Shown: piece by piece, positions 8,677 through 63,893 of the stretch
Layout: the number at the start of each line of letters is the position of its first letter
Numbering within the stretch: the stretch's first letter is position 1
Source: a virus
Direction: 5' to 3' (one strand)
Virus record (IMG/VR): IMGVR_UViG_3300045988_108212
Location: 64,001-128,000 of that record
DNA length: 64,000 bases
Program-made: the position numbers and the translations under genes
Notes under the pieces: generated by a model
Database searches by the model: none
Told to the model about the DNA's origin: nothing
Seen by the model: the letters and a program-made list of their open reading frames with translations, nothing else

Positions 8677-9315
8677 TTACTTCACTACATATATTTTTCT
8701 GTGCTGTTGCACATTTATTGTTTCGGAATGTGTTGATTTGAACACGTCTACATGCATTCCTTTTACTTTGCCTCCGCAATCTTCTGCCACAAAGATTGTG
8801 TCACCGTATCCCTCAATCTTAACTCTTGTTCCATAAGGGATAATGTTTTTATCAACCGCAATCGTATGATATGGTCGAGCAAATTTATGCCCTGCATGAT
8901 TCCAAGCAATCTTAGATCCATATCCTTCAGAACATTCATAACATGGACAATATGCCGTGATCAAAAATGTTCCAAGTGAACTCTTTTCAAGTTCTCGCTT
9001 TCGCTTCAGCCGCTGTCGTTTAATTCGCAATCGTTTCTTTCGAAGTTTTTCTAATCGAATCTGTCTTGCTTGCTCTTCATCAGCTTTCTTACATTTCTGA
9101 TAATGCTCATGAACATCTTTTAATGCAACGCTTTGGCTGATTGGATTGTCTGAAATCACATTGCCTTGCTTATTTTCTGCAACAGTTGTCTCTGTTGATA
9201 AGGTTGAAGCCTCTACCGAGGGTCGCTCCTCTGCTTTAACCGTGTGAGTCATAAAGCCCGAACACATTGCTAAAAAACTAAACGAGACAACTTTCATTAA
9301 AAATCTTTTTCTCAT
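8677..9315 (-). CDS. secreted 3D-domain protein (MltA/RlpA-like barrel)
   Basis: Signal peptide MRKRFLMKVVSFSFLAMC, a basic coiled segment, then GTFLITAYCPCYECSEGYG..TIAVD..IPYGTRV..FVAEDCGG, typical of 3D domains. The start is set to 9315 because the track's 9339 lies at the predicted transcription start site (TSS). Confidence 0.7.
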   Translation of the reverse strand: MRKRFLMKVVSFSFLAMCSGFMTHTVKAEERPSVEASTLSTETTVAENKQGNVISDNPISQSVALKDVHEHYQKCKKADEEQARQIRLEKLRKKRLRIKRQRLKRKRELEKSSLGTFLITAYCPCYECSEGYGSKIAWNHAGHKFARPYHTIAVDKNIIPYGTRVKIEGYGDTIFVAEDCGGKVKGMHVDVFKSTHSETINVQQHRKIYVVK

Positions 9316-9345
9316 TTTCACATTTCCTTTCCTTAGCATATTGGT

Positions 9346-9383
9346 ATCTTATCATACTTCTTGCACCCTGTCAATAGGTGCAA
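9346..9383 (-). promoter_or_regulatory. sigma70-type promoter with overlapping palindromic operator (cassette copy 1)
   Basis: Minus strand: TTGACA (9374..9369), 17 nt spacer, TAAGAT (9351..9346). The inverted repeat TTGCACC (9361..9367) / GGTGCAA (9377..9383) brackets the -35. It is nearly identical to 42194..42250. Confidence 0.5.
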
Positions 9384-37938: not shown

Positions 37939-39243
37939 TTATTTAATTGCTACGAATTTTTCATCCTGTTTGTTGTCATTAATATATATTTCTTTGCCCT
38001 TAAGTTCTGGAAAATATTTCTTGGCAAGTTTCTTGAATTCATTAATATTTTTAAGACTTTCGTCATCATATGAATCAAACAACATTTCATCTTTGATTTC
38101 CCTAAAGAACTTCGCATGAGGTAAACCTTTTCTTTCCTCTTCTCTCTTCTTATCATTCTCAAGAATCTCTTCTAATTTACATAAATTCTCTGTCACTTCA
38201 ATGCAGCTACTTGGATATTTCACATATTTGTTTGTCCAAAAATCAACTGCATCATGAGCACCTGCATTACCAAACAGGTATTTTAATACACAAGTCTTGA
38301 AACCTTCTTCTCTGTTAAATCTGTCGAATCTGCTTGTATAAGCAACAGTTTCAGTACCACAGTTCCAAACCACCTTAACCATACCTCTGTAAAATTTAGC
38401 CTTAGTTACTGGTTTACCACCTCTTTCGAGTGGCTTACCATTACTATCTAAAACAGGTTCCCTAACTGTCATCTCTTTGTCTACATAAATAACTTTTTTG
38501 ATTTTGTCTTTTAATTTTTCTGTATTCATATCTTTCTCCTCTTCGTTTCCTGTAAGTTCACTCATGATTTCATCCAATTTTTCTGGCGCAAATGTTAAAG
38601 TTGCACTCATTTCACCATTCCAATCAATATGTGTTGGTGCATAAGGACTCAACCCACGGTCGTCATGTATCATCCACGATTTCCCTGTGGTTGAAAGCTC
38701 ACCAGCCTCATTCTTTATTGGTTCTGACGTTGCAGTAATTGGTTTTTGTTGATAGTGTGACAGAGCAGACACTCTTCTTTCTGAGAGTGACGGTAGGGTT
38801 AATGTATCAACCTGTATTTTGTCGGCTGAAATCGTACCTGTCTGAATCTCAATATCTTCATTCATTGTTCCACGAATAAGCACAACCTGTAGTTCATCTG
38901 AAGTTCGAACAACACAATTAATATACCTATATAAATCACCATCAAACCACATCTTATTATTACTATTTATTTTCGTATATATTAAATGATGTAACCCTGT
39001 AGCTGTTGGATCAATGGCTTTATCATCTTCCCCAAATACACTACATACAGGCAAAAGTTTTTGAAAGCTCGATCCTCTACTTCTGTTATATTCGACACTT
39101 ACTACCTTGAAAAGTACATTCTCAACATCGGAAAATACTTGTATATAATCTCCAATGCTCAAACGAATTTCATCATCACTATCAAGTCTCTTTCTGTGTC
39201 TGCCTTTAGTCTGCACCCAAACGCCCGTTTTATTTTCATCCAT
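37939..39243 (-). CDS. hypothetical protein
   Basis: 434 aa with GAGGAG SD. No motif recognised. Confidence 0.6.
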   Translation of the reverse strand: MDENKTGVWVQTKGRHRKRLDSDDEIRLSIGDYIQVFSDVENVLFKVVSVEYNRSRGSSFQKLLPVCSVFGEDDKAIDPTATGLHHLIYTKINSNNKMWFDGDLYRYINCVVRTSDELQVVLIRGTMNEDIEIQTGTISADKIQVDTLTLPSLSERRVSALSHYQQKPITATSEPIKNEAGELSTTGKSWMIHDDRGLSPYAPTHIDWNGEMSATLTFAPEKLDEIMSELTGNEEEKDMNTEKLKDKIKKVIYVDKEMTVREPVLDSNGKPLERGGKPVTKAKFYRGMVKVVWNCGTETVAYTSRFDRFNREEGFKTCVLKYLFGNAGAHDAVDFWTNKYVKYPSSCIEVTENLCKLEEILENDKKREEERKGLPHAKFFREIKDEMLFDSYDDESLKNINEFKKLAKKYFPELKGKEIYINDNKQDEKFVAIK

Positions 39244-39391
39244 ATAATTCTCCTCTCTAATGTATCAATTTGTTACTTTACATTTTCACGGTATTGATAT
39301 TCATCGACACTCAATACCTGCGTACCCATCTCTAGTACCAAGACGGTACTGGAATTTATCTCCTTTCTAACATAATATTTACATTTTAATT

Positions 39392-39411
39392 TTGCACAAA
39401 TGCCTGTGCGA
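39392..39411. promoter_or_regulatory. palindromic site TTGCAC-N8-GTGCGA (operator-like, variant)
   Basis: Its half-sites match those of the cassettes at 9361 and 42209. Located in the 195-nt intergenic region upstream of 37939..39243. Confidence 0.3.
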
Positions 39412-39438
39412 GTCATTACATATAATAAGGAAGAAACT

Positions 39439-40089
39439 CTACCCAATTATATTCTGGATAAGCTCATAATACTTTGTCCTGCCGACATACGACTTATGTT
39501 CTGCATCTTTTAATTCTTTCTTCAAAGTACATATATCTTTCTGATTATCCATGCAATTCTGCATCACTTCTATGTATCGAATACAATTCTTGATCTTTCT
39601 ATGCAATTCTTGTAAGGTTTTAAGATACCCAACAATCACTGCACGTTTCGCAGCATCAATCTTTTTAAACTCAATCGCATGAAGAATATCACTTCTGGCA
39701 GAATCGGCATATGATAATGCCTGTTCTAATTCAAACTTCTTTTCTCCTAATTGATCTGAGTCATATGCTAGAAGTCCTACTATAGCTCTTTCCTCAGTCT
39801 CTATATTGTCGATCAATGTATTATCACATTCCCAATCCATAAAGCAATTTCCATTACTTTTACGCATTATTTCACTAGATTCCATAGGTTTTCCAACTTT
39901 ACCTAGCTCAATTTCTCTGGCATGAAATCCGTCTTTCATCCACGTATATTTATGCTTCAAACCTAAAATGTGCTTTGCTTGCTTAGAGGTAAATTGAGTA
40001 GCTTCAGACTTACGATTATCACGAACGTATTTATTTCTTGCATGATCTCTTTTCACATAGAACTCTCCATTCGTAATTATGTATTTCAT
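39439..40089 (-). CDS. hypothetical protein
   Basis: 216 aa with AGGAG SD. Confidence 0.55.
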   Translation of the reverse strand: MKYIITNGEFYVKRDHARNKYVRDNRKSEATQFTSKQAKHILGLKHKYTWMKDGFHAREIELGKVGKPMESSEIMRKSNGNCFMDWECDNTLIDNIETEERAIVGLLAYDSDQLGEKKFELEQALSYADSARSDILHAIEFKKIDAAKRAVIVGYLKTLQELHRKIKNCIRYIEVMQNCMDNQKDICTLKKELKDAEHKSYVGRTKYYELIQNIIG

Positions 40090-40135
40090 ACATCACTCCT
40101 GTATTTAATTGTAGTTTTTTGGAAAAATTTTCATG

Positions 40136-40164
40136 TTGACGAACATGTTTAGAATTGTTATAAT
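40136..40164 (+). promoter_or_regulatory. near-consensus orphan sigma70 promoter on the plus strand
   Basis: TTGACG (40136..40141), 17 nt spacer, TATAAT (40159..40164), with TGt extended -10 (40156..40158). No plus-strand gene follows. Confidence 0.6.
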
Positions 40165-40170
40165 GATTTT

Positions 40171-40266
40171 AAGGATAATAATATCCTTATCTATTAAACA
40201 ATTCTAAATATCAAATTCGATTTTCTATCGTGCTGCCAACACGGTAGATTCAAAAAATCTTTTTTT
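40171..40266 (+). ncRNA. candidate ~95-nt small RNA, antisense to the inter-cistronic region
   Basis: Downstream of the promoter lie hairpin AAGGATA-ATAA-TATCCTT (40171..40188), hairpin CTATCGTG-N7-CACGGTAG (40225..40247), then AGATT-N5-AATCT plus T6 (40246..40266). No ATG occurs in this span. Confidence 0.4.
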
Positions 40267-40282
40267 GTTATCTATGATTTGT

Positions 40283-40648
40283 TTAGTTGAAATTTTTAGT
40301 TTGTGTGAAAGTAGAAGTTTTACCAAAGACTTCTGCTTTCTTTTTTATTGTCTGTATTTTTATTCCAACATTGTATCTCTCTTTGTATGTAAATTGCAGG
40401 CATTTGATTATGTCAAATATGTCGTCCTGCCTAATATGAGAGAACAAATTCTCATCTTGAATAAATTCGATCCAATGATATGAAAGATCTTTATCTTTGC
40501 CATAGATCTTCATCTTTCTATCATCTGCTCGAATCTTATATTCACTCAGAAACCACGATGACATTTCTGATGAGTGTAAATCAAGTACATCAATATGCAT
40601 TTGATTTGATTGATTCGCTACCAATGTTTTTAATATTTGATTGTCCAT
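40283..40648 (-). CDS. hypothetical protein
   Basis: 121 aa with GGAAGG SD. Last gene of the MazF-led block. Confidence 0.55.
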   Translation of the reverse strand: MDNQILKTLVANQSNQMHIDVLDLHSSEMSSWFLSEYKIRADDRKMKIYGKDKDLSYHWIEFIQDENLFSHIRQDDIFDIIKCLQFTYKERYNVGIKIQTIKKKAEVFGKTSTFTQTKNFN

Positions 40649-40662
40649 ACATATACCTTCCT

Positions 40663-41679
40663 TTATTCTGTCATAATTTGATGTACACGATAATTCTTAT
40701 AGTCCTCATCTTTATATAAATAACCAATAGTTTTACCAATTACAGTTTGACGATCACTAAATTGTTTCTTTTTTAATCTATATGATATATAATAATTATA
40801 ATAAAATTCAATTGCAATTTCACTAAATTGACGTGCGATTATAGATCGTGCGATTCCTTCTTTTGATTTAATATAATATAAATCTGCAATTGCCTTGATA
40901 TCCATTTTAGATTTTAAATATTGTATAAAACCAGAATTAATAACATCAATGGTTGTCAATTTCTCATAAGATAAAGTGTTACCAGTTAATTCTAATTGAG
41001 ACTGCACATTATTATATATCCTCTTTTGCTCTGCTTGATATTCTTCTATATTATTACATTTTTTTCGTGGTATTAATACAAAATCATCATATATATTCGT
41101 ATCTCCCATTTTCAATTTATATTCATTCAATGTCTCGATAAAATCTTTGGAGACTGGTTTCCCAAAAATTGTTAAATCATTTTGATTAATATCTGAGAAT
41201 TTTAGATTTCTTAACTCCTTTCCATTTATCCCATTATATAAACTCACAATATGAAATCTAGTATTCAATTTGGTATCGGCTGATGCATTGCACGACATCA
41301 GATTCGAAATAAACGCATTTATTTTATCTGGTGTAACATAATTAACATTAACTCTATTTGAAAAATATATATCAACTGCTAATTGCAAGTTTATAAATTT
41401 ATCATTAACAAATGGATTATATTTAATGTAATTTTGTTCATATGCATAAGTATATAGTTTAACGAGCTGGTCATATCTTTTTTTAATAGAATTCATACTT
41501 TTGGTTTTTTTACCTCTAGTATCTGATAATATAGCCTCTTGGATTGTACCTGGTGCATACGTTAACCCAGATTCATTGTCGTCCGCAATATCAGAATCTA
41601 ACAACCAATTCCATGTTGGGCGACGTGATTCTGATACGTGAGAATCTATATAATTTTGTATCAATTCTTTATTATTCAT
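40663..41679 (-). CDS. integrase-fold-like protein lacking visible catalytic residues (repressor candidate)
   Basis: 338 aa from ATG 41679 (GGAG upstream). ..LVKLYTYAYEQNYIKYNPF.. resembles the core-binding domain. ..SLYNGINGKELRNLKFSDINQNDLTI.. resembles the Arg-I segment but has no Arg. No HxxR or terminal Tyr motif was found. Confidence 0.4.
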   Translation of the reverse strand: MNNKELIQNYIDSHVSESRRPTWNWLLDSDIADDNESGLTYAPGTIQEAILSDTRGKKTKSMNSIKKRYDQLVKLYTYAYEQNYIKYNPFVNDKFINLQLAVDIYFSNRVNVNYVTPDKINAFISNLMSCNASADTKLNTRFHIVSLYNGINGKELRNLKFSDINQNDLTIFGKPVSKDFIETLNEYKLKMGDTNIYDDFVLIPRKKCNNIEEYQAEQKRIYNNVQSQLELTGNTLSYEKLTTIDVINSGFIQYLKSKMDIKAIADLYYIKSKEGIARSIIARQFSEIAIEFYYNYYISYRLKKKQFSDRQTVIGKTIGYLYKDEDYKNYRVHQIMTE

Positions 41680-41693
41680 AATATTCTCCATTT

Positions 41694-42143
41694 CTAGGAT
41701 GCCATTGCATTCATGTACGATAACATGCCGTTTTGTATTAAAATGCCATGTCCTATTTTTAACATTAAAGATAGATCAGATATTCTTCCCCAATACTCTA
41801 AAAGATTATTCTTTGGAATTGTTCTTCCTTGCTCTAAATACACCTGTGATACCATTTTTAATCCATTACTGGTATTTGGATAAATGGTTACATGTGTCGG
41901 TATCCAGTTCCTTAATTTTTTTGTAATTGGATACACGTTAATCTCTGTGCTCGTATTATTACAAATATTATTAGAATATACGATGACTGGTCTTTTCCCA
42001 TGCAAGATATGACTACCTTCAATTTTCGGCAAATCTGCAAAATATATTCCCCAAACTTGAGGATTTTGATATTTACCATATACATATTCTTTTCTTTTTC
42101 TGTTATCGTTTCCTTTTCTTTCTTTGTTAGTATATCCGTTCAT
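41694..42143 (-). CDS. mazF: MazF/PemK/EndoA-family endoribonuclease toxin
   Basis: WGIYFADLPKIEGSHILHGKRPVIVYSNNICNNTSTEINVYPITKKLRNWIPTHVTI..SQVYLEQGRTIPKNNL aligns with EndoA (YFADL, G.RPV.V, PTHV.I, LEQ.RTI). The start is set to ATG 42143 because the -10 box lies inside the track's extension. Confidence 0.85.
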   Translation of the reverse strand: MNGYTNKERKGNDNRKRKEYVYGKYQNPQVWGIYFADLPKIEGSHILHGKRPVIVYSNNICNNTSTEINVYPITKKLRNWIPTHVTIYPNTSNGLKMVSQVYLEQGRTIPKNNLLEYWGRISDLSLMLKIGHGILIQNGMLSYMNAMAS

Positions 42144-42193
42144 TTTTACGTCCCTCAACTTTCCCCAGTTGTATTTTTTATTTTCATGAATTA

Positions 42194-42231
42194 AATATAC
42201 CATACTTTTTGCACCCTGTCAATAGGTGCAA
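42194..42231 (-). promoter_or_regulatory. sigma70-type promoter with overlapping palindromic operator (cassette copy 2)
   Basis: Minus strand: TTGACA (42222..42217), 17 nt spacer, TATATT (42199..42194). The inverted repeat TTGCACC (42209..42215) / GGTGCAA (42225..42231) brackets the -35. About 55 nt are nearly identical to 9346..9400. Confidence 0.55.
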
Positions 42232-42303
42232 GAAAGAAAGTTAATTTTTGTTGTGAACAAAGAATCTCTACATTTCTTATTATAATGCTACCATAGAACA
42301 AAA

Positions 42304-42624
42304 TCAAGATATTTTTCGAACAGATGTTCTCTTTTTGTTCGAACACTTTACTTTGTGCTTACTTGGAAGGGGGAAATACTGTCTAACTTTATGAGGCTTA
42401 TCCAGTTTCCATTTCTTTTCTTCAAAATCATAGTCACAAAAATCAAGCACTTCGTCCACACATCCATCATTATATTTGTAATCCACAATAACAGGATATG
42501 TTTTATACCTCATGTAACGTGATGCATTATCTGGTTTTAATGGTGGAATCTCTGCTGAAATCCACATAAGATTCTGGTTTGCTTTCTTTTCTTCCTTATT
42601 TTGTCTAATCGTATTTATCTTCAT
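42304..42624 (-). CDS. hypothetical protein
   Basis: 106 aa with AGGAG SD. Confidence 0.5.
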   Translation of the reverse strand: MKINTIRQNKEEKKANQNLMWISAEIPPLKPDNASRYMRYKTYPVIVDYKYNDGCVDEVLDFCDYDFEEKKWKLDKPHKVRQYFPLPSKHKVKCSNKKRTSVRKIS

Positions 42625-42635
42625 ACAAAATTCTC

Positions 42636-43382
42636 CTATAAAATCCTAATAATTTGTTCGTAAATTGCAATCGCATTATCTCCTGGAAAGTTCTGGTTCA
42701 CATGCATATGTCCAAAGAACCACTTTTTATATTCAACAGATTCTTTAATCTCTTGCAAATAATCCGTCAATATATCTGTTTTATACACTCCTAATCCTTG
42801 GTCCATTTGACATAATACAGATGCATATGGACTATGTGTAATTATATAATCCACTTGCGATCCATTCTGCTTCAGATTCATCATACCTTCTGTCATTTCC
42901 TCCTCTGAAGGCAATTCTTCTTTCCACCAGCTCACATGATTAATCCTAAACATTTTGTCATAATCTCTGTACCATTCATTAATTCTTGGATCGTCTGGCT
43001 CTAAAATTCCATCTTGCACATCATGGGAACTGGCACCGCCAAATGTAAAGAATTTCTTTACTTGAATTTCAAACACCTGTCCACGCATAAGATGAAATAC
43101 AGAGTCTTTGATCTTGTGAATCTTTCCGCCACACCATTTCTCTACAGGATATTGATATAAGCGGTCGTAATTTTCATGATTCCCACATACAAACAATGTA
43201 GTAAATGGCTTGTTATCTAACCATTCCAGATTATATCGTTCTTCTTTTGTGTCATGCCACAGTCCAAAATCTCCGCAGATAATCACATAATCATCTTTGG
43301 TTAACTCAACTCCCTCTGGGAAAGAACGACTGTTTAATCGAGTCATCCAATCCCCATGTGTATCTCCTGTTACAAATATCAT
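42636..43382 (-). CDS. calcineurin-like metallophosphoesterase
   Basis: GDTHGD, CGDFG, GNHEN, ITHSP and GHMH motifs in canonical order. 248 aa. Confidence 0.85.
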   Translation of the reverse strand: MIFVTGDTHGDWMTRLNSRSFPEGVELTKDDYVIICGDFGLWHDTKEERYNLEWLDNKPFTTLFVCGNHENYDRLYQYPVEKWCGGKIHKIKDSVFHLMRGQVFEIQVKKFFTFGGASSHDVQDGILEPDDPRINEWYRDYDKMFRINHVSWWKEELPSEEEMTEGMMNLKQNGSQVDYIITHSPYASVLCQMDQGLGVYKTDILTDYLQEIKESVEYKKWFFGHMHVNQNFPGDNAIAIYEQIIRIL

Positions 43383-44329
43383 ACAATTACTCCTTCCAAT
43401 AACTCTTCTAATGCCTGCATATTATCTTCATGTACTCTATCATCTTGATCTGCATCATCTTTGCCAGTCTTATAAGCAAACTTGATAATCTCCATAACTC
43501 TATCATAACTCACATTAACAACATTTTCCTTCAATCCGTTAAAAGCCCCACTGATAATTTCCTTGTATGTCTGCGCAATATCATCAAACAATACATGAGT
43601 TTCTTCCTCTGTGATTGTTGCATACAGAAATGTCATTGCAGGGCTACTATGATTCAATAATCTCATAAGTGTATACAATACGTTCTGATCATCTTTATGA
43701 TCGACAAGTGTCCAATACACAAAGTTCTTTCGTAATGTATGCGTACCAATATTGTCCTCAATTCCAACTGCTTTAGCACCTTTTTTAACAAAATCCAAAG
43801 CATTTGCTTCAGTCATGTGTCCTGATCCAGACTTACATGTTCCAAAAACATAATCATCCATTGGCACTTCGCCATCAATCTTGACATCATATTTAGTTCC
43901 TGCAACAGCTTCAAAGAAAATATCCACTGCTTCAGTTACCAAATCGTTAAAGTATACAGTTCTGAATTTCTTTGTTTTCTTTTCCTGCTTACGAGTCTTA
44001 TCGTCTAATAAATCGCCCCATTTGAGTCTGACGATATCAGAGATACGATATGCTGTATTGTTTCCAACTGCAACCAAAAGATTGTTTCTGGCAGCTACAT
44101 ATCGTTTGTACTCTGTGTACGATTTATCAATCTGGTCTCTAAAATATGCATTAAAGGCTGCAAATTGTTTTCTGTCCTTGATCGGATACACTAAAGATGA
44201 TACGCCTTTCTGTTTGTTAGATCGAGTCCATTTAGGACTTCCATCCTTACGTCTTTTAATCTTTGTTTCAGATTCTTCTGCGTTATTATTGTTTACTGTT
44301 TCAATAACTTCAAACTGTGTTGCTGCCAT
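43379..44329 (-). CDS. tyrosine recombinase
   Basis: AYRISDIVRLKWGDL (Arg I), GTHTLRKNF (HxxR), LLNHSSPAMTFLYATI (His and Tyr). 316 aa with no long N-terminal arm domain. Confidence 0.75.
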   Translation of the reverse strand: MAATQFEVIETVNNNNAEESETKIKRRKDGSPKWTRSNKQKGVSSLVYPIKDRKQFAAFNAYFRDQIDKSYTEYKRYVAARNNLLVAVGNNTAYRISDIVRLKWGDLLDDKTRKQEKKTKKFRTVYFNDLVTEAVDIFFEAVAGTKYDVKIDGEVPMDDYVFGTCKSGSGHMTEANALDFVKKGAKAVGIEDNIGTHTLRKNFVYWTLVDHKDDQNVLYTLMRLLNHSSPAMTFLYATITEEETHVLFDDIAQTYKEIISGAFNGLKENVVNVSYDRVMEIIKFAYKTGKDDADQDDRVHEDNMQALEELLEGVIV

Positions 44330-44432
44330 GATAATCTCTCCTCTCTAATTATTACACTGTTCACGTACTTCTGGTCTAATTTCTACTTCGATTAATTCCA
44401 TAATTCTTACTCCTATTCTCTAAATTTAGGCA

Positions 44433-44459
44433 AAATAAAAAGAAGCCCCTAAGCTTCTC
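44433..44459 (-). terminator. rho-independent terminator
   Basis: Minus strand: GAAGC-TTAGGG-GCTTC followed by TTTTTATTTT. Downstream of 44483..44947. Confidence 0.6.
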
Positions 44460-44482
44460 AATCTCATTCTGTTATTCAATTT

Positions 44483-44947
44483 CTACAATGGTCTAATAAT
44501 ATCAGGATTCATGATCAGAATACTATCACAATCCCAACCGTAAAGCTCATAATATAACTCATAATCACCTTTGGATAAATTAAGCTTAATTGCATCAACT
44601 CCATCTTCGACCATCTTCTCAAAATCTGGCACAACGCCCATTGTATCAAATAAATATTCTGGGAGATATCCCGATAGATCTTGCGTTGGAACCTGCTTTA
44701 AATCGGCTTTCGCTGTCCATTCAACAATATTTGCCGAATCATCCAATGTAAATTTAAAGTTTTTGTCTAGTTTATCAATTCTAAAATCATTATCAATACA
44801 CCATTTCTCCCACGGCTGATCCGCCTTTATATCCGATGCCCATAAACCTCCAAATGGTTTGTTAATCATGTTTCTGTTCACAATTGACATAAACAACTCT
44901 TTCTCAAACTTATCACTTCCGTAGTGAATATAAATATTTTCTGACAT
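44483..44947 (-). CDS. hypothetical protein
   Basis: 154 aa with AAAGGATGG SD. Confidence 0.55.
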   Translation of the reverse strand: MSENIYIHYGSDKFEKELFMSIVNRNMINKPFGGLWASDIKADQPWEKWCIDNDFRIDKLDKNFKFTLDDSANIVEWTAKADLKQVPTQDLSGYLPEYLFDTMGVVPDFEKMVEDGVDAIKLNLSKGDYELYYELYGWDCDSILIMNPDIIRPL

Positions 44948-63344: not shown

Positions 63345-63893
63345 TTAATTTACAATTGAAATGTAGCCGTTGAATGCTGTAGAATTAACATACCAACCAC
63401 GAATATTCATTTCACGACTGAATTTTTCATAATCAAAATAATTTGATACACTTGTTGGAATATTTTCAAGTAGTCCAGTATTATCAACATACTGATAAGC
63501 AACGTCTTTCATGCTGTCGCAATCTGAATAGATGATATAGTTACCATCTTCTACAATGTCAAAGGCTTCATCTAAAGTTGATGTTTCTGAACTAATTTCA
63601 TTAAATACCGTTCTTTCTTCATCTGAAAGTTCTGAATACCGTTCTCCAATTTCCTGGAGTCTTGAAAGTGGTGTGTATTCTCCTAAGTCCGTTGTATCAA
63701 ACTCTGCATCATAATCAGCGATAAAGTATTCTTCATATTCTGCACCAATGCCGATTTCTTTCAAGATGTTTTTGATTTCGTCTTCATCAGCAAGTGGGAA
63801 ATTTACAGCTTTATCAATGATTTCTCCTTCATTGTATTTCCCTAAGTTTGTAACCCATGCTGTAAAACCGTCTTTATTTGTGTTCGTGTTCAT
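63345..63893 (-). CDS. ardA: ArdA antirestriction protein (DNA mimic)
   Basis: VTNLGKYNEGEI, EYEEYFIADYD, IYSDCDSMKDVAYQYVDNTG and NYFDYEKFSREM are colinear with Tn916-type ArdA. 182 aa, strongly acidic. Confidence 0.88.
   Translation of the reverse strand: MNTNTNKDGFTAWVTNLGKYNEGEIIDKAVNFPLADEDEIKNILKEIGIGAEYEEYFIADYDAEFDTTDLGEYTPLSRLQEIGERYSELSDEERTVFNEISSETSTLDEAFDIVEDGNYIIYSDCDSMKDVAYQYVDNTGLLENIPTSVSNYFDYEKFSREMNIRGWYVNSTAFNGYISIVN

Follow-up and report, generated by a model that had tools for sequence, protein, structure and literature searches.

How is a MazF-type endoribonuclease kept in check when a phage carries its gene without a MazE, and what is the integrase-like protein encoded directly behind it? 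We consider this question for a 64,000-nucleotide (nt) stretch of viral DNA, referred to below as the window (positions 64,001 to 128,000 of IMG/VR record IMGVR_UViG_3300045988_108212). An earlier note, made by a model from the letters of this stretch alone, had described a MazF/EndoA toxin gene with no MazE, apparently in one operon with a 338-amino-acid (aa) protein of integrase-like layout, and had proposed that this second protein, here called p338, is repressor-like and could also act as the antitoxin. Repressors with an integrase fold are established in SPbeta and phi3T (PMC10516654; bioRxiv 10.1101/2025.11.27.690993). As we will argue, p338 is probably an inactive recombinase that acts as a repressor at loxP/dif-like operators and thereby autoregulates the MazF-p338 operon. 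The features involved are listed in Table 1.

An intact MazF gene without a MazE

The product of the toxin gene matches the PF02452 (PemK_toxin) profile with an E value of 1.7e-15 and 57.6 bits, against a curated cut-off of 23.1; it also matches phrog_1936 ("MazF-like growth inhibitor") and, over residues 32-144, 13 solved MazF/EndoA/PemK chains (E 3e-10 to 2e-8). Its catalytic Arg (in GKRPV) and Thr (in YPIT) align with R25 and T48 of Bacillus subtilis EndoA (GVRPV and AAIT), and in an alignment of 15 homologues R51 is invariant and T74 nearly so, with Ser in one member. The assignment made from the letters alone is thus confirmed by both profile and structure-derived matches, and the protein is apparently an active RNase, judging from its intact catalytic residues. 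It carries in addition a basic N-terminal extension of ~30 aa, consisting of an invariant MNGYT, a K/R-rich linker with frequent indels and the motif Y.YG+Y..PQVW; this extension is lineage-specific, being found neither in canonical MazF nor in the closest outgroup, P0021. In some relatives an in-frame upstream ATG lengthens the protein further, by MQLGKVEGRK.

Canonical MazEF and PemIK modules have a co-transcribed MazE or PemI gene upstream of the toxin. Here, judged from the -10 element of the MazF promoter (P_mazF), transcription would begin ~44 nt before the MazF ATG (42143), and no conserved MazE-sized open reading frame (ORF) precedes MazF, even counting from a second promoter-like site farther upstream. 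No antitoxin of the MazE, AbrB, ribbon-helix-helix (RHH) or Phd type was found among the 53 small ORFs of the window, and a search of 39000..44500 for an RNA antitoxin gave no Rfam match or tandem repeat. The lack of a MazE, which the earlier note had pointed out, holds for the leader, for the sequence upstream and for the small ORFs of the window.

What does accompany MazF is p338. The MazF stop codon (TAG, 41696..41694) is followed by 14 nt that include a GGAG and then by the p338 ATG at 41679; the homologues begin MNNKE, which confirms the 338-aa start and with it the junction as first described. Every p338 homologue that we found lies adjacent to, co-oriented with and after a MazF gene, including those of L009-L012, which lack two upstream genes, and that of L013, in which the two genes overlap by 23 nt. 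This adjacency is invariable over alleles whose identity ranges from 35 to 100%.

A recombinase fold that has lost its catalytic residues

In a PHROG profile search, p338 matches the phrog_1 integrase family with an E value of 4e-10. Matches to other recombinase profiles are weaker: Phage_int_SAM_5 is reached at 18.4 bits, under its cut-off of 22.3, with 6 of 12 family members matching and all of them below threshold, while PF00589 is matched by 3 of the 12, likewise below threshold (best E 0.015). The sole PDB profile match is XerA, with YTGVRVGEL aligned with LYNGIDVKEL. An initial AlphaFold model based on 8 close sequences had a predicted local distance difference test score (pLDDT) of 56 and gave meaningless Foldseek output; it was replaced by an AlphaFold (AF2) model from 10 more diverse sequences, with a pLDDT of 74 and a predicted template modeling score (pTM) of 0.60. 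The top 13 PDB matches of this second model in Foldseek are all tyrosine recombinases, with probabilities of 0.84-1.00 (1.00 for the first eight), and include XerA, Tn1549 Int, XerH and the repressors SroF (9rgl) and YopR (8bpz), the latter two at 1.00; beyond these 13, the probability falls below 0.1. About 30 viral integrases in BFVD also match the model. The template modeling (TM) scores of the Foldseek matches are low (0.3-0.4), which we attribute, no domain-by-domain comparison having been made, to a different orientation of the two domains in the model and in the targets. As modeled, p338 thus has the two-domain recombinase fold, comprising a core-binding (CB) and a catalytic (CAT) domain, and the layout that the earlier note had read from the sequence is recovered by profile searches and structure prediction alike.

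The residues that make such a fold a recombinase are missing. Across 12 members of the family, down to 35% identity, the Arg-I position is occupied by N, S, D or E, and the HxxR position reads DxxN (..DVINSGF..), with an H in one member; instead of the R-K-H-R-H/W-Y set, all 12 proteins lack both catalytic arginines, extending to the whole family what had been seen for p338 itself. R331 is the one Arg that is invariant. The family also retains K174, which lies in the region of the beta-hairpin, and several tyrosines, and with invariant ones such as Y293 and Y294 among these the absence of a terminal Tyr, as read in the earlier note, is uncertain. The most conserved segment of the protein is its acidic/aromatic C-terminal tail. 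The family is tiny and confined to the clade of the window phage: it forms 7 clusters at 90% identity, the cluster of the window p338 has 858 member sequences, and only two further full-length representatives were found among 1.8 billion proteins. Searches of 50,697 phage records with the region (nucleotide) and with p338 (tblastn) gave no matches.

Candidate operators at three promoters change together with the cassette

P_mazF is predicted to be a near-consensus sigma-A-type promoter. Its -35 (TTGACA, 42222..42217) and -10 (TATATT, 42199..42194) hexamers are invariant across alleles and relatives, so that the promoter first proposed from the letters is a conserved feature. The window has exactly two copies of the 23-bp palindrome TTGCACCCTGTCAATAGGTGCAA, where shuffled sequences lead one to expect 0.09, and both wrap a -35 hexamer inside a 52-nt promoter module. 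One copy (O1) lies at P_mazF; the other (O2), in a module 90% identical to that of O1, lies at the promoter of a peptidase-ligase block (ORF 8677..9339), 33-50 kb downstream of the MazF-p338 cassette. A third copy, at a promoter here called P3, is outside the window and is seen in full-length IMG/VR contigs (L233:3390-3500 and its equivalents in L233-L282), on the strand opposite to the cassette and ~22 kb away. It stands upstream of a 130-aa gene that is followed by a 287-aa protein with weak similarity to replication initiators and helix-turn-helix (HTH) proteins.

Comparison with relatives sets the boundaries of the cassette. In 100-nt bins, identity between the window and the relative L058, which has the P0007-type allele, is ~90% down to 42291, drops to 48-75% over 42290..40716 and returns to 84-100% from 40715 on; with nucleotide divergence confined in this way, the divergent block comprises exactly the operator/promoter, MazF and p338. 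The proteins behave accordingly in genomes of the type that we call P0007, whose Int (96% identical to that of the window), p106 (93%), p121 (93%) and p216 (97%) are close to their window counterparts, compared with only 70% identity for MazF and 55% for p338. The cassette also has the lowest GC content of any 2-kb bin in the window (28%, most bins having 32-36%). In these comparisons it behaves as a single exchangeable specificity unit of an immunity-like kind, with at least six alleles.

The palindromes vary in step with the cassette. All window-type genomes examined carry the TTGCACC..GGTGCAA arms, 20 genomes having been compared at P_mazF and at the peptidase promoter and 8 at P3, and the arms are kept while the spacer varies. 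The P0007-type genomes instead have CTTTAwnTGCT..AGCAnwTAAAG at P_mazF, the peptidase promoter and P3 in five of five cases, and these five are mosaic among themselves in their Int, metallophosphoesterase, p434 and HTH alleles. At the remote promoters the swapped patches span only 45-75 nt (~45 nt at O2) between flanks that are ~95% identical. Four further alleles (the P0002, P0003, P0022 and P0023 types) each have a palindrome of their own, centered on the same G of TTGACA. The sites of all six alleles are two-fold symmetric, with inverted arms of ~7-12 bp around a 7-9-bp spacer, a geometry that resembles the core site of a recombinase (loxP or dif).

That the arms follow the cassette allele at three promoters is most simply explained if the specificity of operator binding is encoded within the cassette. 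Of its parts, p338 is the obvious candidate, as it has the fold of DNA-binding recombinases and is the most divergent of them; and because the site occupies the -35 element of near-consensus promoters, binding should repress. It is on this comparative basis that we infer DNA binding by p338, its binding as a dimer and repression rather than activation; the physiological role proposed below for MazF is likewise inferred. The TTGCACC-N9-GGTGCAA sites that the earlier note had put forward as targets of p338 thereby gain strong comparative support. Two other genes were considered as the specificity determinant and rejected: genomes of the two operator types share the intact recombinase Int316 at 94-100% identity, and an allele of it with 75% identity occurs with the window-type operator, while a hypervariable Xre-type HTH gene near P3 has at least 6 alleles that are shuffled relative to operator type.

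Table 1. Positions, in the window, of the features discussed in the text.
Feature	Position	Strand	Basis or remark
MazF/PemK-family endoribonuclease, 149 aa	41694..42143	-	PF02452, phrog_1936, PDB MazF/EndoA matches
p338, 338 aa, tyrosine-recombinase fold (modeled), catalytic residues lost	40663..41679	-	AlphaFold and Foldseek, family alignment
Divergent cassette (operator/promoter, MazF, p338)	40716..42290	-	100-nt sliding identity window against L058; protein identities; GC
P_mazF, predicted promoter, TTGACA-17-TATATT with TG extension	42194..42222	-	11/12 match to consensus
O1, candidate operator palindrome, TTGCACC-N9-GGTGCAA	42209..42231	-	Centered on G 42220 of the P_mazF -35
O2, identical 23-bp palindrome, candidate operator	9361..9383	-	On the -35 of the peptidase-ligase block promoter (9374..9346)
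Int316, intact tyrosine recombinase (R / HxLR / Y)	43379..44329	-	PF00589, E 1e-13; XerD/XerA-like
Upstream promoter-like site, TTGATT-17-TATAAT, no operator	42279..42307	-	10/12 match to consensus
Metallophosphoesterase gene	42636..43382	-	Between Int316 and p106
p121, 113-135 aa	40283..40648	-	Always 3' of p338; outside the divergent cassette

p338 lies in the position of YopR

The phage is large and low in GC (~33%). The window covers its early/replication arm, in which all genes lie on the minus strand, and encodes a DnaE/PolC-like polymerase, a RecJ-like nuclease, a primase, a DnaB-like helicase, a NAD-ligase, a DnaD-like loader and several Bro-N/Ant proteins. The closest polymerase from a cultured phage is only ~33% identical. 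In viromes of the human gut, near-identical contigs with lengths of 140-169 kb are common, and the genome is ~160 kb long. More distant relatives of the backbone are prophages in chromosomes of Lachnospiraceae, Mediterraneibacter and others of which are candidate hosts: that of Mediterraneibacter hominis encodes a polymerase 70% identical to that of the window, and homologues of the DUF8224 protein, at 54-60% identity, occur in Konateibacter, Eubacterium segne, Lacrimispora and Ruminococcus. p338, the MazF subfamily of the window and Int316 are each absent from 185,579 species-representative (GTDB) genomes.

In SPbeta, yopP (integrase), yopQ and yopR (the integrase-fold repressor) are consecutive. 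We found the same trio in a prophage of Ruminococcus sp. AM36-2AA (QTYB01000001.1; L292:3662-6875), where an integrase with intact motifs, a YopQ-family protein (phrog_5732) and a YopR-family protein (phrog_5830, E 3e-36) are encoded ~3 kb upstream of a DUF8224 gene in a prophage related to the window phage; judged by its profile match, this trio extends the MrpR/SroF repressor family to the Lachnospiraceae. The order in the window, Int316 ... MazF - p338 ... DUF8224, places p338 in the slot of YopR. The same slot in a prophage of Eubacterium segne BX4 (NZ_JACOOZ010000003.1; L289:504-3197) holds an Int, a divergently oriented Cro/C1-type HTH gene (HTH_26) and a canonical 121-aa MazF, followed after 6 nt by an unassigned 93-aa ORF and then by a p216-like gene. 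A MazF beside a DNA-binding regulator therefore recurs at this slot, with different regulators. The SPbeta-type context suggests a temperate heritage for the phage.

Proposed mechanism and its alternatives

In the mechanism that we favor, p338 would bind as a dimer to the inverted arms of the palindromes, the spacer of which is the -35 TTGACA of three near-consensus promoters for the host RNA polymerase: its own P_mazF, the promoter of the peptidase-ligase block and P3 on the opposite strand. Bound p338 would occlude the -35 element, and the outcome would be negative autoregulation of the MazF-p338 transcript (possibly including p121) together with co-repression of two other gene blocks. The dose of MazF would then be set primarily by p338, at the level of transcription, by way of the shared autoregulated transcript. 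By analogy with SPbeta and phi3T, the two proteins plausibly cooperate in shutting down early or lytic expression, p338 through transcription and MazF through mRNA.

Several observations weigh against this mechanism, or limit how far it can be taken. The remote promoters were compared for two alleles only; as the comparison took in incomplete genomes, another co-varying regulator might be encoded at a distance of over 10 kb; and because the two genes of the pair stay together throughout, a contribution of MazF, or of its complex with p338, to operator recognition is conceivable. Confidence in the p338 model is moderate, and its C-terminal 70 residues have a pLDDT below 50. SroF and MrpR act as monomers on an asymmetric box, so that a palindromic, dimer-type site is without precedent among integrase-fold repressors. 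Finally, no prophage copy of the cassette occurs in the 185,579 genomes, so that a role in lysogeny is hypothetical. Of the two parts of the earlier proposal, the repressor-like nature of p338 has gained strong comparative support, from the YopR/MrpR/SroF fold, the pattern of lost residues, the genomic position and the co-variation of operators, together with a defined candidate regulon; the antitoxin or lysogeny switch is a plausible hypothesis.

If p338 controls the operon, it may still be asked whether it also neutralizes MazF. The two could form a type II toxin-antitoxin (TA) pair in reverse gene order, with p338 as both autorepressor and protein antitoxin, such that loss of p338 would free MazF and derepress the early promoters. 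Such a pair, which we regard as doubtful, would account for the lack of a MazE-like gene upstream or among the 53 small ORFs, for the tight junction, with the genes 14 nt apart in the window and overlapping by 23 nt in L013, and for the constant adjacency of the two genes; a candidate operator in the pair's own promoter is what autoregulated TA modules have, the tail that is most conserved in p338 is acidic and aromatic, and the E. segne prophage combines MazF with another DNA-binding protein in the same slot. The co-divergence of MazF is, however, explicable by linkage, as its gene is flanked by the operator on one side and by p338 on the other; the presence of two more operators at remote promoters fits a broader regulator better than a TA autorepressor; other phages, including the virulent Lpa804, have solitary MazF genes; and neither PADLOC nor NCBIfam returns a match. 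Those solitary genes suggest another reading, to which we are likewise only doubtfully inclined, namely that MazF is an antitoxin-less phage RNase that serves host takeover or the turnover of early mRNA, and that p338 merely regulates the operon, adjacency reflecting common timing. T4 RegB has an analogous role. MazF-like genes are carried by 69 phage records, and in the three neighborhoods that we inspected no annotated MazE adjoins the gene, which is surrounded by early, DNA-metabolism and unannotated genes; two of the three belong to Lactobacillus phages that we take to be virulent. The window MazF, too, sits in an early array, along with ArdA-like and Tad2-like anti-defense genes, and the lack of prophage copies is in keeping with such a role. 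Self-protection would be left unexplained, in that neither UACAU/ACA nor any obvious pentamer is depleted on the sense strand of the phage, a result that is uninformative as long as the specificity of this MazF is not known; the strict conservation of the pair and its tight junction, as well as the temperate heritage suggested by the SPbeta-type context, also speak against an RNase acting on its own.

MazF might, alternatively, be held by some other small protein, either p121 or an AimX/YosL-like protein elsewhere in the 160-kb genome, of which the examined part amounts to 64 kb. phi3T does inhibit MazF through AimX and YosL (PMC10769878), and p121 is present in every relative; p121, however, matches no antitoxin family and does not diverge along with MazF (93% identity as against 70%), and we consider a separate inhibitor improbable. 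The upstream gene p106 was rejected as a candidate antitoxin, being absent in L009-L012. Lastly, instead of being operators the palindromes might be sites of recombination or resolution, whether for Int316 or with p338 in an accessory role. Their arms and 7-9-bp spacer do resemble loxP/dif cores, and the gene for an intact recombinase lies 1.2 kb upstream; yet all of them are centered on the -35 of near-consensus promoters, ~45-80 nt upstream of gene starts, Int316 does not co-vary with the sequence of the sites, p338 lacks both catalytic arginines, and recombination between two directly oriented sites would remove essential replication genes over a length of 33-50 kb. We therefore consider this reading very improbable, and return below to repression by p338 at its operators.

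Implications

If p338 acts as proposed, it would represent a second, sequence-unrelated family of integrase-fold repressors, a class documented earlier only for SPbeta-like Bacillus phages, and would do so in a phage of Lachnospiraceae from the human gut that is highly abundant and has a genome of ~160 kb. The likeness of its operator to a recombinase core hints at a route by which recombinases may be converted into repressors. Six candidate repressor/operator pairs, for two of which the match holds at three promoters, offer material for studying how DNA specificity evolves on the recombinase fold, and the allele series would be a source of orthogonal repressor-operator parts. The presence of MazF in the cassette ties it to the steering of lysis and lysogeny by MazF in arbitrium phages, and the question of why a phage should carry a MazF of its own, and how it restrains it, becomes testable. 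Should p338 be the antitoxin of MazF as well, which we think unlikely, a single protein would restrain both the early promoters and a phage-borne RNase, in at least six non-cross-reacting alleles; an antirepressor, or a superinfecting phage that is heteroimmune, could then inactivate or titrate this protein and so derepress the phage and release MazF together.

Other features of the region

The upstream promoter-like site of Table 1 is conserved in all aligned relatives and lies just outside the cassette, where the window and L058 are still ~90% identical. p121 has no match in Pfam, PHROG, PADLOC or NCBIfam, and PADLOC and NCBIfam have no match for MazF, p338, p216 or p106 either. Within the 3' end of the p121 gene, at 40307..40340, is a hairpin with a 15-bp stem and a T-run on the plus strand, which would be a terminator for antisense (plus-strand) transcription only. 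The metallophosphoesterase gene is polymorphic for presence: L005-L008 have a 37-aa remnant ORF, L009-L012 lack it, and the P0007-type genome L060 has it.

The Xre-type HTH gene near P3 is small, and its alleles are 30-100% identical in genomes that are otherwise similar. It precedes ~2.9 kb (L233:218-3400, in IMG/VR contig 3300045988_120824) without convincing ORFs or Rfam matches, which may contain an origin or a non-coding RNA or be a second locus of an immunity-like kind. The early array in the window has at its upstream end the gene for an ArdA-like anti-restriction protein (63345..63893, minus strand; phrog_2059, E 9e-26). One of the 53 small ORFs encodes a Tad2-like anti-Thoeris domain (PF11195, E 7e-28), and this ORF is not among the ten that were individually tested between 55108 and 62796; another of the 53 encodes a DpnD/PcfM domain. 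A 119-nt direct repeat with 76% identity (28866..28984 and 29395..29513) forms the ends of two adjoining ORFs of ~170 aa (28449..28982 and 28999..29511), which have the appearance of tandem paralogues.

Comparison with known systems

The closest parallels to p338 are the repressors MrpR, YopR and SroF (PDB 8A0A, 8BPZ and 9RGL; phrog_5830), which are likewise phage-encoded, have the CB+CAT fold and have lost the catalytic Arg/His/Arg. As in MrpR, the beta-hairpin Lys and Tyr residues are kept, and the loss is parallel rather than residue-for-residue (PMC10516654). As with YopR, the p338 gene follows that of an intact integrase at a distance of a few genes and belongs to the early region of a large Firmicute phage whose replication block is SPbeta-like; and like the MrpR family, p338 would recognize a sequence element that is repeated in the genome. 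By sequence, however, p338 does not belong with YopR and phrog_5830, matching phrog_1 only. In hhalign comparisons neither YopR (probability 0.3%) nor its Ruminococcus homologue (1.3%) aligns significantly with p338, and neither does the Int316 family; both of the YopR alignments fall on one short motif, surrounding what was once the HxxR helix, which is a hint only. The proposed site of p338 differs as well, being a perfect palindrome on the -35, whereas MrpR and SroF bind as monomers to an AT-rich box that is asymmetric and 26 bp long, and in contrast to that family we find only three sites per genome and at least six exchangeable repressor/operator alleles. Finally, the p338 gene adjoins MazF in one predicted transcript, where the SPbeta repressor has yopM-Q.

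With MazEF and PemIK modules, such as EndoA-EndoAI of B. subtilis and MazEF of E. coli, the cassette has in common a PF02452 toxin with the catalytic Arg and Thr, an operon shared with a predicted DNA-binding protein and a palindromic candidate operator in the promoter. Unlike these modules it has no MazE or PemI, the toxin gene comes first, its partner is a 338-aa protein of recombinase fold, the candidate operator is found at two distant promoters as well, and MazF has its basic N-terminal extension of ~30 aa. Solitary phage MazF genes (phrog_1936), as in the Lactobacillus phages Lpa804 and ATCC 8014-B2 and in gut Heliusvirales, encode proteins 31-44% identical to that of the window and also have no annotated MazE; those inspected differ from the window gene in having no integrase-fold neighbor, N-terminal extension or operator cassette. 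In staphylococcal phages, pemK/mazF are listed as accessory genes (PMC6507118).

A link between MazF and the operon of an integrase-fold repressor is known from the arbitrium wiring of phi3T (AimX, YosL and phi3T_93/YopN; PMC10769878), in which a protein encoded in the repressor operon liberates the MazF of the host and lysogeny is favored. The MazF of that system is the host's, controlled by phage proteins that bind MazE or MazF, whereas the window phage carries its own; no AimR, AimP or AimX was identified in the window. The mosaic pattern, in turn, is that of the lambdoid heteroimmune regions, where a divergent repressor/operator block lies within near-identical mosaic genomes and changes are matched at several promoters. 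The cassette described here, whose part in lysogeny is hypothetical, differs from their immunity regions in that the candidate repressor has a recombinase fold instead of an HTH and that a toxin gene lies within the block.

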